From the NCBI GenBank assembly GCA_951406725.2, contig OX597838.1:6200001-6264000 (forward strand): a DNA stretch of 64,000 nt, read 5' to 3'. The notes beneath the pieces are model-generated. The model saw nothing but the letters and a program-made list of their open reading frames with translations. It was not told the origin of the DNA and did no database searches. The stretch's first letter is position 1. Each line of letters opens with the position of its first letter. Source of the stretch: Octopus vulgaris (taxonomy: Eukaryota). Made by a program: the position numbers and the translations under genes. This document shows, piece after piece, positions 4,239 through 62,939 of the stretch.

Positions 4239-4269
4239 TTCTGTTGAGGCATTGAAGCAACATGATCGA

Positions 4270-4445
4270 TAGCATGCTGGTAGAATGCTTCGCGATATTT
4301 GTTTCGACTCCTTAAGTTCAGAGTTCAACTTTCACCGAGGTCGTCTATGCCTTTCATCTTTACGGGGTAGATAATATATACACTACCAGTGAAGAACTGG
4401 GGCCGGTGTAGTCGATTTGCCACATCCCGTCGAAAATTTTAAAGA
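4270..4445 (+). mobile_element. SINE family B, decayed
   Basis: GAGTTCAACTTTCACCGAGGTCGTCTATGCCTTTCATCTTTACGGGGT body. Confidence 0.7.
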
Positions 4446-4536
4446 ATATTTTCTTACATATATTTCCATCTACACAAACATATTTGCATGGATTTCCCTG
4501 TACTACTATATCGTATGATGAATTTTAATAACTACG

Positions 4537-4925
4537 AGGCAGGTGTGACTATGCGCTTCTCAACTACATGATTCTGGGTTGAGTCCCACTGCGTTGCGCT
4601 GTGGCCAAGCCTCTTCTGTTGTAGCCCTGTGAGTGGATTTGGTAGACGGAAACTGAAAGTACCCCGTGGTATATAGCTTTGTTAGTACTGAAAGTAGCCC
4701 GTGATATATATACCTTTGTTATTACTGAAGTACCCAGTCACATGTAGCTTTGCTAGTGTATTTCCGTCCCTGTAACACTATTGTGTCTGCCAAAGCAACC
4801 TATAGAATAAGTAGAGGGTTAAAATGAATATAAGGACTCAGGTTGGTGTGTTCGATTAAAATTCTTTAAGGTGATGCCCTAGAATGGCCGCAGTCCAATG
4901 ACTTAAATGAGAAAATAAAGATAAA
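4537..4925 (+). mobile_element. SINE family A, diverged
   Basis: GGGTTGAGTCCCACTGCG, GTGAGTGGATTTGGTAGACGGAAACTGAAAG, ATGGCCGCAGTCCAATGAC. Confidence 0.8.
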
Positions 4926-29885: not shown

Positions 29886-31769
29886 TAGACCATATCAAAG
29901 TGTTGAAAATCTCTATAGGTGTAGCGGTCTCACCGATGGCGTACACTTCAATTTCGACAGTACCTCAGCTCCACGTACATACAACATGAGTTACGTTAGT
30001 AGCACCATCGAAGGATCAAAATTTCATACAAATGATAAACGAGACGGCCATGTGCCAAACATTTTGTGATTCGAAACTCTTGTGAGCGGATGACATGTGA
30101 TCGAAGTACCATGCTAGTTGTTGCTGTTCATACAACTGAACCAGGGACTGATAACGAGAACAAAGCGTATTCATTTAGGAAAACAACCAGTAGGTAATAT
30201 CAGTTCCATTTAAACCATTTCCATTTAATTAGATGGAGTGGAACACCAATACACGAAGATATTATGACGATTCAATTTATAATTTTTAATTCAACATATC
30301 ACATTTACATTTAAAATTTCAATAGATGTTCAAGGGTTGGTGTTGATAAAAATGAAATCGTTTTATGGTCATAGTCACTCGTCTACAAATGAATTGAGTG
30401 TTTTTTTATGTGTAATTTCTTACATAACAAAACTGATTCTCTAATAATTCTCTTTCATGTCATATTCGCCCCATTTATTATTTATAATATAAACCTGTCA
30501 GTTCACTCCTATTGAAGTTATAATCCTGTTCATGCAAGCTTTTCTATCTAGAAAACGATTCGTTTAGCCTAGTTGAGAAATATGTTGAGCGAACATGTAA
30601 TGCATTTGCGGTTCGTATATCAAAAAATCCGATCAAGTGGAAAATGTAAACTGCCTCTGTTTGTTAAAGTAGCAAATATGTTCCATATATATGACCTAGA
30701 TGATTCATATCGATTTTTCAACGTCTATAACTTCATAGATGAGAATGGATGTAATATCTGTCAAACAAGCGAACACGCCTTTACTGGCGTAGTTTTTCCC
30801 CTTGAATTCTTTCTGACATAATAATTTGTTTCGGATTCCTCTAAGCTCGCCAATAATCCAGCACAAACTATCTGATATATTATTTGTGTTTCTCCTTAAC
30901 AAAACACGGTAAAGTACACAAAAAAGCTCGGGAATCTGCCGAAGTCTGAGAATACTACGTGTATTATTATAGCATAGATCATTATTAGTCTCATAATGAT
31001 CTATATCCGTGTACATAACCACTAATCTGTTTTTTCGGCAGAAGCGAATCTTGTTTACATGTGAAATAGTAGCTTCCAGAACAAATAAGTCGTAACAATG
31101 CCTCGGCTGTCGGATGAAACGTTAAAACTTACTTATTCCAGACTCCACCACTCAGAAGAGAGTTTTTGTTTGCGTAAGGAAAAACCTGCATCTTTAGATA
31201 ACACATTTAACCTTATTTAATTTATTGCCTGACATTTTCTCCTTGGCAGTCAAGTTTCATTGGGTTTTGTGAGATATTTCCTTCATTTGTATTCCGAACT
31301 CGTCCGGTATCTTCTCCCAATCTTCCATAAGTTTTGTCTAGCATGTACCTAAAAGTATAGCTAAAGCTCTGAATGGTTACACAGGGAGTCGCCATTTCCC
31401 GTCATATCTATTTAGTGGTGAGATTTTCAGAAGTGATTTTTCGTTTAACACTTTAACCCTGACACATTTCCCTTCAAATTCACCTCACAAATTTGTCTTA
31501 TCGCAGTAAGAAATATCATCAATTAGATTTATTACCATTACTTTCTGATTTAAGAACAAGGACAGCACTTTTTGGCGAGAGAAGCATAATTGATTACATG
31601 GGTTACTCGAAAGAATGAAAGGTAAATTTGGCATTAGCGACATTTAAACTCAAAACAAAAAATACTCTAAACAAATACCGTTTAATGTGTCCGAATCGCT
31701 TTTAGACTCTCGCAAACGTCTGCCTGTCTTCAATCTATAATTAACGGTTCCTCGTTAAAGCAAAAGGCA

Positions 31770-32480
31770 GCAACTTTTGGGAAGTGTGGAGAGTCGCCGG
31801 AAAGCTTGGAGAATGGTATGTTGGAGGGGGAAGGGTAAAATGGTGATAGGTGATGGGAAAAGGGGACAGGTAATGGCCGGGGAGATGCGGGGAGAAAGAG
31901 CAGAGGTACGTTCCTCGGAACGAGATTTGGCAAGGACAGTGTGGATTGTAGTGAGGGAATACCCACGAAAGATGAAATTGCGAGATCCGAGTTGAGACAG
32001 TTTCAAAGTCATGGTCGTCACTGCAGAGTCTTCAGTAGAGGAAGGAGAGCTTGGTGCGGATAAGGTGGGTGGAAGAGAAGTTAAGGTAGGAGTGTGAGTC
32101 GGTGTGTTTGTAGTGTATGGAGGTAGTGAGTGCAGAGTGGTGTATACTGATAGAAAAATCGGGAAATTAGACGGAAGGGTTAGAAATAGCGCGGGGGAAT
32201 TCGAGGGTAGGATGGAATGATTTAAAGAAAAAGAAAAGGTGTCTAGTTGTACGCTGGAGACTGAGGACGCACCGACAAAATCATCGATATAACGACCGTG
32301 TATTTCTGAATTGGGACCAGTGAATCGTGAGAATATTTGTGAATTAACGTAGCGAACGAACAGGTTTGAATAGATAGAGCCCCCATTCTTGTTCCCATGG
32401 CCACTCTCGAGCATGTTGGTAAAAAAATCCCCCGCGAACGAGTATCGTTGAGGAAGAGAAGAAATTCAGCCAGACGAAGA
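31770..32480 (-). pseudogene. Penelope-like retroelement reverse transcriptase, decayed fragment
   Basis: Across frameshifts: LRLAEFLL, VAMGTRMG, YSNLFVRYVNSQIF, RYIDDFVGA (catalytic YIDD), RGYS, LQHTILQAFRRL. Motif order is typical of PLE RT. Confidence 0.88.
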
Positions 32481-43025: not shown

Positions 43026-43734
43026 TTAAGTATACATCTAGATATGTATTAGTGCGCAAGTGTATAAAAGAACGGTCAAATATTTCAGGTACTTAGCGAC
43101 AGAAATAAGATTCCTTATTCTATCCAACGGCCTGGTAATTTGGTGTTAACCCTTTGCTAGAAGGTCGGACAGGCCCCTGGTTTATTCTTTTATGTAAAAG
43201 TCCATCGAAAACCTCTGCCTCGAATAACCGGCGGTCTCTTTACTTGTGTAAAGAAACCACTTTGAAATTAATTATGCATCTCTGACAGTTGCATCTACCG
43301 AAGTTGCACCTGGGGTATAACGAGCCCTTACGATGCCAAATATTTTGTTTTTGCCACCGTATTAATCGAAGACCTAAAATACTCACAAACGAAACTGACG
43401 GAGAGATAGACTCGTATGGACAACATTGCTGTGCATGGACGTTCACATTTCACTAGGTAATTGTCATTTAAAATACTCGTTTATGAGACGTTACAAAACT
43501 TCATACATTTCTTTATCAACTTCCAATATATCTCTAGATCCGCCGTCTAACCGACAGATAATCACTCTCTTATACTGTCTCGAACGCTCACTCACTGTCC
43601 ATTTCTATGTATGTGTGTAAGCGCTCAAGGAACTACTGAATTTCTTTAGCTGCATTGTGATAGAACATATAAATGATGTATGACGTAATTTTCTTTATAA
43701 TCGATGCATCTTAATATTTCCATGCAACTATATA

Positions 43735-44049
43735 CATCATCGGAGCGTGGCCGTCTGCCAGCCTCGTCTGGCACCTGTGTCGGTGGCACATACAAAACAC
43801 CATCCGAGCGTGGCCGTCTGCCAGCCTCGCCTGGCACCTGTGTCGGTGGCACATAAAAAACACCATCCGAGCGTGGCCGTCTGCCAGCCTCGTCCGGCAC
43901 CTGTGTCGGTGGCACATAAAAAACACCATCGGAGCGTGGCCGTCTGCCAGCCTCGTCTGGCACCTGTGTCGGTGGCACATAAAAGACACCATCCGAGCGT
44001 GGCCGTCTGCCAGCCTCGTCTGGCACCTGTGTCGGTGGCACATAAAAAG
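43735..44049 (+). repeat. GC-rich 63-bp tandem repeat, 5 copies
   Basis: Unit CACCATCCGAGCGTGGCCGTCTGCCAGCCTCGTCTGGCACCTGTGTCGGTGGCACATAAAAAA starting at 43735, 43798, 43861, 43924 and 43987. Confidence 0.97.
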
Positions 44050-44220
44050 CACCCACTACACTCTCGGAGTGGTTGGCGTTAGGAAGGGCATCCAGCTGTA
44101 GAAACACTGCCAGATCTGACTGGCCTGGTGTAGCCTTCGGGCTTGCCAGACCCCAGTTGAACCGTCCAACCCATGCTAGCATGGAAAGCGGACGTTAAAT
44201 GATGATGATGATGATGATGA
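43735..44220 (+). mobile_element. 5'-truncated SINE-like retroposon with (TGA)n tail, carrying the 63-bp array
   Basis: The array runs into GGTTGGCGTTAGGAAGGGCATCCAGCTGTAGAAAC...CCCATGCTAGCATGGAAAGCGGACGTTAAA(TGA)n. Confidence 0.75.
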
Positions 44221-61410: not shown

Positions 61411-61733
61411 CGTGAATTTAAGTGCCTTTTCTCTAAATAATTTTGTTTATTTTTCGAAATTTTATGTTCTTTTGTTTTCCATAACACTCCTTTGCAATTC
61501 CCTTGTTGATGTTTCCGTTGATTATATATTTGGAGCTTTCCACTCATCTGACCGAACCATTGCCATCTTCCGATTACACCCGTATTTATTTGTATTATTG
61601 TTTCGTGAATAAATTTGCTTTTGCCTTCTATTATCTGTTCTATGTCTTGATTTCATTCATCTGAGAGAAATTAGGCATTGTAACGAGTAGGGGGAATATC
61701 CTAGCTCCTGGGTACTACCGGGTACCTCAGGTA

Positions 61734-61781
<48 letters not shown>

Positions 61782-61921
61782 CAATAAAGATTCAAGTTAA
61801 TTTAAGTGAATTTACTTGAATATGGTACCTAACTTAGATGCACCAAAAAAACTATACTGTTTTAACAATACAATAATGTGGGGTGATTATAAGCGAGAAA
61901 GAAGCAACAAGAATGGATAGG

Positions 61922-62012
61922 TTTTAGTACAATCGTTTCATACAAGGACAGGCTTTATTAAAAGTTGCAAAAATTACAGCATATAAACGTGTCCTGTACT
62001 CATCAGCTAAAA
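61922..62012 (-). ncRNA. Type-I hammerhead ribozyme (minus-strand copy)
   Basis: Reverse complement of the 62275-62365 motif; TCATCAG at 62000-62006 and GTTTC at 61935-61939. Confidence 0.85.
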
Positions 62013-62274
62013 TACATGTGAGTTCTCTAGACATCCTATTGGTTGAGGCTATACTCATGAAGTAGATAATTAAGTAACATAAATAGATTTCCAAAGTTCA
62101 TTAAAGTTCTTTAAAGATGATGTACAGTCTTATCTGTACATCATCTTTAAAGAACTTATCTGTACATCATCTTTAAAGAACTTTAATGAACTTTGGAAAT
62201 CTGTTTATGTTACTTAATTATCTACTTCATGAGTATAGCCTCAACCAATAGGATGTCTAGAGAACTCACATGTA

Positions 62275-62365
62275 TTTTAGCTGATGAGTACAGGACACGT
62301 TTATATGCTGTAATTTTTGCAACTTTTAATAAAGCCTGTCCTTGTATGAAACGATTGTACTAAAA
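62275..62365 (+). ncRNA. Type-I hammerhead ribozyme
   Basis: Stem I TTTTAG (62275-80)/CTAAAA (62360-65); core CTGATGA (62281-87); stem II GTACAGGACA/TGTCC-t-TGTAT; GAAAC (62348-52); stem III AC-gatt-GT; predicted cleavage after GUA (A62359). Confidence 0.88.
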
Positions 62366-62394
62366 ACCTATCCATTCTTGTTGCTTCTTTCTCG

Positions 62395-62442
<48 letters not shown>

Positions 62443-62939
62443 TTGAGGGTACTACTATTCGTAGATACCACACGCTAAGAGGGACCAATGCGGTCAAAAC
62501 TACTAAAAGTAAACAAAATTTTACCGAATGCAAAACTTCAAAGCACATCATTTTAAAAAAAGAATTCAGTTACATATCACATGTGATTTCGCATTTAATG
62601 CAGAATATGCATTTCATGTTCATCAGTGCAACAAACTCAAGAAATATAAGAAAAATCATAACATTACAAGCTCGATAGCCAACCGTAGAATTCGTCGTAG
62701 AAAGTACGAATGTTTATCTTTACATATCTATGAAAATGGCGGGCTTATTCGCAATGCATTTCGATAACAAATTGCCTACTCGGAATAAAATTCAGTATTG
62801 AACTATTCCGGTGAAAAATATAACTTAACAATTGAGGATAAAATCTTTAAAAGAAATTATCAGTAGTCAGCGTGAAAAACCTCGTAAAAGAAAAAATCCG
62901 TAAATTCTTCCTCTTTGAAAATATTCATATATTTCTTTT

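Follow-up and report, generated by a model that had tools for sequence, protein, structure and literature searches.

Structure of the insert

The 64,000-nt stretch of Octopus vulgaris DNA analyzed here (the window) contains a TA-flanked insert, which is almost certainly a 5'-truncated, inverted copy of a Hydra-clade Penelope-like element (PLE; Table 1). In the assembled sequence its arms, at 61888-62127 (240 bp) and 62160-62400 (241 bp), are mutual reverse complements which differ by one substitution and one one-base indel, share a perfect stretch of 206 bp, and are separated by a gap of 32 bp. An earlier first-pass annotation, made from the letters alone, had described an insert of about 620 bp with such arms between TA tracts, and a 32-bp spacer holding an extra copy of the arm tip; both descriptions were borne out, the center of the insert being a 26-bp tandem duplication (62129-62154 and 62155-62180), which spans the junction and has a 3-base repeat on its flanks. 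The true extent of the left arm is to 62134, where one base is common to the right arm. The left arm corresponds to positions about 4262-4620 of the 4623-bp unit of the element (minus strand), and the right arm to positions 4269-4509, ending 37 nt past the ribozyme cut. The tail is 118 nt long in the full unit and doubles as the 5' UTR before the ORF in the full-length copy. The insert is not a chance structure, since a first look at the 2.8-Gb genome gave 1141 candidates for its arm; among the 49 arm matches listed, 18 are full-length and 100% identical, one of them the window itself.

Table 1. Features of the insert and the adjoining sequence (window coordinates).
Feature	Position	Strand	Remark
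(TA)22 tract, left half of the target microsatellite	61735..61778	.	
Left arm: 5'-truncated PLE 3' end, ending at the distal site (site 2)	61779..62134	-	
3' tail between the two 3'-end sites, predicted hairpins	61779 to about 61887-61891	-	Left arm only
Type I hammerhead, minus-strand copy	61922..62012	-	Predicted cut gives 5' end 61927; mirror of the Rfam match
Head-to-head junction, overlaid by the 26-bp duplication	62129..62180	.	1 shared base at 62134
Right arm: 5'-truncated PLE 3' end, ending at the proximal site (site 1)	62160..62400	+	
Type I hammerhead, plus-strand copy	62275..62365	+	Predicted cut gives 5' end 62360
(TA)n tract, right half of the target microsatellite	62397..62442	.	
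Near-unit copy of a 499-nt non-coding retrozyme, minimal hammerhead	62443..62932	-	Core 62626

An older repeat (about 85% identity, 125 first-look candidates) lies on the plus strand at 61426-61734, and, as its copies also end in TA-rich tracts, the left (TA)22 is likely older than the insertion. Since the older repeat, the PLE stub, and the retrozyme all adjoin TA-rich DNA, the three elements are aligned along one TA-rich stretch. Elsewhere in the window there are a 63-bp tandem repeat of five copies with 95% identity (43734-44053), further hammerhead-core-like strings found by the motif scan (37806, plus strand; 34034, minus strand), and an open frame (31755-32465, minus strand), which, together with open frames at two other loci (L047:439-2055 and L046:8041-9000, both on the minus strand), may, by its motifs, resemble another PLE clade.

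The hammerhead cores start at 62281 on the plus strand and 62006 on the minus strand by the motif scan, which confirms at the sequence level the intact hammerhead previously claimed for each strand, here of type I; the predicted new 5' ends (Table 1) also agree with those given earlier. The ribozyme has a 6-bp stem I, a long stem II, and a self-complementary 8-nt helix III of the dimer type; an identical core recurs in 76 of the 78 regex matches, and one of the two exceptions is a mis-parse. The Rfam Hammerhead_1 match to 62275-62365 is weak (19.4 bits against a gathering score of 34, E = 0.021) because stem II is extended. No Rfam match reached the gathering level in the whole window, and sub-threshold miRNA matches to the palindrome and the microsatellites were rejected as shape matches.

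The observation that each strand has one ribozyme with its own antisense ahead of it was borne out from the sequence. However, the accompanying proposal that cleavage competes with hairpin formation is not supported by folding: the predicted fold of the whole insert has -444.5 kcal/mol, with arm pairing near certain and a stem I probability of 0, versus -11.2 kcal/mol for the active monomer fold of the ribozyme, predicted to be disfavored even in a lone arm; the pairing of helix III with a second copy is predicted at -5.8. With one dimer-type copy per strand, preceded by its antisense, the ribozyme is therefore predicted to be silent here, a passenger which any transcript of the locus would enclose in a 240-bp duplex.

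The parent element and its clade

In other copies the arm continues upstream into a 1.6-kb 3' UTR and then into an RT-endonuclease ORF, which is wholly open in one (L043) of the 20 long copies fetched and codes for 949 aa from the first Met (L043:3371-6217). The order of parts in L043/L130 (inverted pLTR, direct pLTR, ORF, UTR, pLTR) is the textbook PLE layout, and pLTRs from partial tandems together with an inverted 5'-truncated copy were seen in L043/L130 and L088. The arms are 95-99% identical to the ORF-bearing copy, while copies diverge by 0.7% from the majority sequence of the family. The first-pass annotation had been right in expecting a young, TA-targeting, multi-copy, PLE-related family, and two of the checks it proposed, for arm copy number and for a linked RT/GIY-YIG ORF, returned a multi-copy arm and an intact ORF; its non-autonomous family is contradicted, as the same arm runs via the UTR into that ORF. 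The family appears from its sequences to be a young, recently active, autonomous 4.6-kb PLE.

The protein contains a telomerase-like RT with YRDD. Its predicted model (pLDDT 76.6) is confident except in two disordered Asn-rich inserts, residues 485-574 (26% Asn) and 666-805 (36% Asn), and the top nine Foldseek matches of the model were telomerases (TERTs; best E = 8.9e-9). The Asn-rich inserts are largely missing from 17 aligned relatives. Pfam searches with the ORF and 17 relatives recognized neither domain, and a PDB sequence search with the ORF gave nothing useful. When residues 1-500 were used as the query, 41 relatives were found among 8000 candidates scored; 40 of them have 32-45% identity and are mostly about 700 aa long, and the 41st is an Octopus sinensis gene model, which matches 40% of the query at 69% identity and was not included in the alignments. 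The putative C-terminal GIY-YIG endonuclease is recognized by its motifs: Y831, Y844, G846, R854, and H858 show no variation across 41 aligned relatives, and the region is collinear by eye with the Hydra endonuclease rows in the supplement of Craig 2021.

The Hydra clade is defined by RWK, DKT, CxCX5C, CxxC and CxH around conserved E and N, and the lack of CCHH (PMC8557442; here and below, comparisons with published elements draw on excerpts of the cited sources). The octopus protein has RWK at 37, DKT at 124 (in place of DKG), CxCX5C at 810, CxxC at 907, and CxH at 937, and CCHH is absent by eye, since no pair of cysteines is conserved in the aligned stretch that separates the two tyrosine motifs. 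A canonical type I hammerhead near the 3' end and (TA)n targets, also traits of the clade, are both present; the length of the unit, 4623 bp, exceeds the "generally <3 kb" of the clade, which is a descriptive rather than a defining trait. By these motifs, with the named references compared by eye only, the element almost certainly belongs to the Hydra clade; an initial reading as Neptune/Nematis was dropped after the motif check.

Hydra-clade PLEs have the same single ORF for RT and C-terminal GIY-YIG, RWK/DKT/CxCX5C motifs, 3' hammerhead, and (TA)n targets, and one of them, Penelope-13_HM, has a 5'-truncated inverted copy and a hammerhead on both strands, as in our insert (PMC8557442). The octopus element differs from them in its 4.6-kb unit, against mostly 2.1-2.7 kb (PMC8557442), and from its relatives in its 949 aa, against about 700 aa, which is due to the two Asn-rich inserts, as well as in its 1.6-kb 3' UTR and long stem II. 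Hydra-1_Obim (PMC8557442 supplement) is 2507 bp long, and its hammerhead sequence and, visibly, its protein differ from those of the octopus element, which is therefore a separate family.

Whether the insert was already catalogued had been left open by the first-pass annotation. Inverted 5'-truncated copies (often with just one of the ends bearing the tail), pairs of hammerheads 100-700 bp apart on opposite strands, the targeting of TA repeats, and Asn-rich inserts are jointly covered by excerpts of PMC8557442, PMC3846280, PMC4209133, PMC8969392, and bioRxiv 10.64898/2026.07.22.740005, so the architecture is already known for PLEs. The family itself was not found described in the open literature, though subscription papers, Repbase, or Dfam may hold a description; the parent appears to be a previously unlisted, in this open-literature sense, and unusually long Hydra-clade PLE family, and, being young and having an intact ORF, it is a Hydra-clade candidate for in vitro work.

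Several observations concern related copies. At least two sister subfamilies among L140-L179 (about 94% and 76-90% identical) share the two ends and have tails of nearly the same length, and two of their members, L171 and L172, contain long open frames. No sequencing run that contains the element is recorded as RNA, and all 24 listed runs consist of contigs. Contigs of four sequencing runs, which we guess to be RNA, cover the L043 pLTR and the start of the ORF; they carry sister-subfamily alleles at two marker places, and the window's subfamily was not seen in these runs. A candidate 5' UTR intron is unsupported, as the contigs of the four runs are unspliced across it and contain no skipping joint.

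Two 3'-end sites and the pairing of ends

Genome matches to the arm (142) were obtained with a 34-letter pattern, its first letter off from the window, and a tolerance of one mismatch, which amounts to searching for an exact 33-mer; the first 100 of them gave 69 loci, which with L043's locus and the window made a set of 71. Outer 3' ends in this set (n = 122) lie at site 1, 37 nt past the ribozyme cut (58 ends), at site 2, 118 nt further (60 ends), or elsewhere (4 ends), and 117 of the 118 regular ends abut TA repeats, as judged by eye. Head-to-head inversions were found in 51 of the 71 loci. All 47 inverted copies with two regular ends pair site 1 with site 2, whereas in shuffled ends the mean number of mixed pairs was 23.7 and the maximum 37 in 20000 shuffles; the remaining four have a site-2 end and a short irregular-ended stub. 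The insert itself is ordinary PLE debris; the newer part is this pairing rule of the two sites.

Exact end patterns on the forward strand alone gave 318 site-1 and 250 site-2 ends, sister subfamilies included, the reverse-strand counts being inflated through overlapping matches. Forty further loci on one contig were hand-picked from the end-pattern lists, most of them without a partner in the other list. They belong mostly to sister subfamilies (76-96% identical), and all 22 with two called ends are mixed; the other 18 are single, are convergent neighbors, have an end off the fetched stretch, or have an end missed by the pattern. Among the 20 non-inverted copies, 11 end at site 1, so that site 1 works alone as a start, and 18 have a TA tract at most 40 nt from the 5' end.

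The two arms of one insertion have the same haplotype: they agree at 250 of 254 common polymorphic positions, versus 202 expected, and differ by 0.30%, versus 1.11% between loci; 11 variants private to one locus are present in both of its arms. Either arm may be the longer, the site-1 arm reaching further 5' in 17/47 inverted copies and the site-2 arm in 20/47, with the two within 10 nt of each other in 10/47. In 2/47 the site-2 arm lies entirely inside the tail, and the arms do not overlap; a 14-nt stub in L114 adds to these. Locus lengths form a continuum from 204 to 6234 bp (at most 700 bp in 33/69 loci), and 35/69 loci have one hammerhead core per strand. Since site-2 arms extend up to 4.3 kb and some copies are longer than one unit, a tandem or circular template is needed, as proposed by Cervera and de la Pena (PMC4209133).

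Insert-free junctions have at least three shared bases in 17/32 cases, compared with 6% by chance, and 19 of the 51 junctions have inserts. Near-symmetric junctions are in excess (10/45 versus 1.2 expected), several of them at short palindromes. The window's junction, with one shared base and the 26-bp duplication astride it, occurs in none of the 50 other inverted loci. The palindrome is not a fixed unit, the 51 inverted copies having scattered junctions. L062 and L111 share an identical symmetric junction at a 4-base palindrome on different haplotypes, which suggests a recurrent stop or join site.

Two classifications of the insert were discarded. For a non-LTR retrozyme, the arms are fragments of a coding unit in opposite sense, and the junction is absent from the other inverted loci; for a TA-targeting MITE, the ends are unequal by 118 nt in 47/47, and the inner lengths follow no fixed value.

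Site-1 ends have a G beside the TA tract in 41 of 58 cases, while read-through copies carry T (58 of 58 readable), and the G is found across haplotypes (L061-L131). It is likely a product of slippage or an untemplated base at priming, and less likely inherited from a source locus. A CG-centered target is disfavored because the two ends are not coupled (both in 23, one only in 12 and 8, neither in 4). Single tails have predicted fold z-scores of -3.1 to -4.0; covariation is weak, only 1 of 26 predicted pairs changing on both sides, essentially in one event.

Origin of the inverted copies

We consider it probable that the inverted copy arose in a single event, in which one RNA served for twin priming. 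The endonuclease would cut both strands of the TA tract, and each free 3' end would prime cDNA on the same RNA, one at site 1 and one at site 2, the two priming sites being probably served by two protomers of a putative dimer. Both cDNAs would stop early, and host end-joining would link their ends via short shared bases or templated inserts, a step which presumably resembles polymerase-theta joining; in the window, the joining would have left the 26-bp duplication. The hammerhead would act in the full-length element, where dimerization of its two same-sense copies could free a unit-length or circular RNA. In LINE-1 twin priming, both target strands likewise prime cDNA on one RNA, which leads to inversion, and the position at which the second primer anneals, internal and upstream of the first cDNA, is variable. 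In the octopus PLE, unlike L1, both starts are fixed, and therefore the arms overlap and a palindrome results.

In the main alternative, one cDNA or antisense RNA primes itself by folding back and copies itself, the second end is set at site 1 by annealing or endonuclease cutting, and later central deletions make the arms unequal. The near-symmetric junctions (10/45, several at short palindromes) and the 11 private variants present in both arms also fit such copying, the four irregular-ended stubs look like its products, and it is the published model for Adineta vaga (PMC3846280). However, if the site-2 cDNA folds back, extra deletions are needed both for the longer site-1 arms (17/47) and for the non-overlapping arms (2/47 and the L114 stub), while fold-back of the site-1 cDNA cannot supply the tail, and site 1 starts alone, as in 11/20 non-inverted copies. 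The combination of one end of each kind, a shared haplotype, and either arm being the longer therefore favors twin priming over self-priming, which we regard as unlikely. The end rule, the shared haplotype, and the arm-length pattern together provide a genome-scale test between the two.

Shared haplotypes could also arise if two RNAs came from one source locus, or if gene conversion followed the insertion. Twin priming on two such RNAs, in which an asymmetric protein complex would impose one start at site 1 and the other at site 2, agrees with the fact that either arm can be the longer, and a shared haplotype shows one source locus rather than one molecule; yet it needs an extra rule for the 69/69 mixed pairs, and the excess of equal stops (10/45) is simpler if both RTs reach the end of the same RNA. 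We consider this version improbable, more so than self-priming. There is very little to recommend the view that the palindrome itself moves as the unit of a non-autonomous ribozyme family, with cleavage and hairpin formation in competition: short loci (33/69) and loci with one core per strand (35/69) are common, and L062 and L111 share a junction, but lengths are continuous, the window's junction is unique among 51, L062 and L111 differ in haplotype, the arms are nearly identical to the ORF-bearing copy, and the hairpin is predicted to abolish the ribozyme fold. An assembly or library fold-back artefact is hardly credible, although near-perfect palindromes adjoining microsatellites are hard to assemble, because the flanks are two different repeats rather than mirror images, the arms differ at two places, and each ends at a biological site distinct from that of the other, a pattern repeated in 46 further loci.

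Twin priming on a single RNA has a partial counterpart in Poseidon from Anolis (PAc), which in vitro cuts and extends both strands at AT-rich DNA, starts RT at two internal sites bounding the tail, is a predicted dimer, and does not need its hammerhead for insertion (PMC11167929). Against the fit, no strand difference in start site was seen in the same study (Frangieh 2024, PMC11167929). PAc also belongs to another clade; its tail lies in the ORF, that of the octopus element in the 5' UTR, and the octopus tail has 118 nt, against the 30-40 bp usually reported (PMC11167929). The Penelope of Adineta vaga shares with our element an inverted pLTR beside a direct one, a tail on one inverted pLTR, palindromic junctions, Asn-rich ORF inserts, and microhomology joins (PMC3846280); self-priming on an antisense template is given there as the cause of inversions, whereas the present counts favor twin priming. 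Opposite-strand hammerhead pairs about 100-700 bp apart in Schistosoma, ascribed to truncated PLEs, resemble the insert and likewise have a dimer-type helix III, although the Schistosoma hammerheads are minimal (Cercyon family) and that of the insert combines a short helix III with a long stem II (PMC4209133). The origin of tandem and inverted structures and microsatellite targeting were named as open questions by Craig 2021 (PMC8557442), and the steps after priming were left unvalidated by Frangieh 2024 (PMC11167929). Neither an end-pairing count nor a twin-priming model for PLEs was found in the open literature, though subscription papers may differ. The dozens of near-perfect hairpin loci could feed small-RNA silencing, a putative role.

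The neighboring 499-nt retrozyme is a separate family with 1363 first-look candidates, TA-targeted and often longer than one unit. Metazoan non-LTR retrozymes were reportedly treated by Cervera and de la Pena in 2020. Such elements are non-coding, with a type I hammerhead, and PLE-linked (bioRxiv 10.64898/2026.07.22.740005), a description which fits the 499-nt element, while the insert, a fragment of a coding element, lacks tandem monomers. In a sample of 27 distinct loci (28 records, one duplicated; six were fetched because they looked inverted), 16 were inverted by eye. Of these 16, 14 pair an end at unit position 499 with an end about 121 nt further, and the other two have a distal end and a shifted proximal one; two distal ends occur in none. 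A comparison of the retrozyme with the Hydra unit gave no significant sequence match (best E = 0.08), and the stretch between its two sites has a fold z-score of -1.84 with no clear common structure. As the retrozyme has the same insertion signature, PLE-type mobilization is suggested. We tentatively suggest, at somewhat less than even odds, that twin priming is obligate: a dimeric RT-endonuclease may hold one RNA at two fixed starts about 120 nt apart, one for each cut strand of the TA tract, in a geometry which the 499-nt retrozyme shares. If this is true, Hydra-type machinery mobilizes retrozymes in trans, reading spacing and structure rather than sequence.
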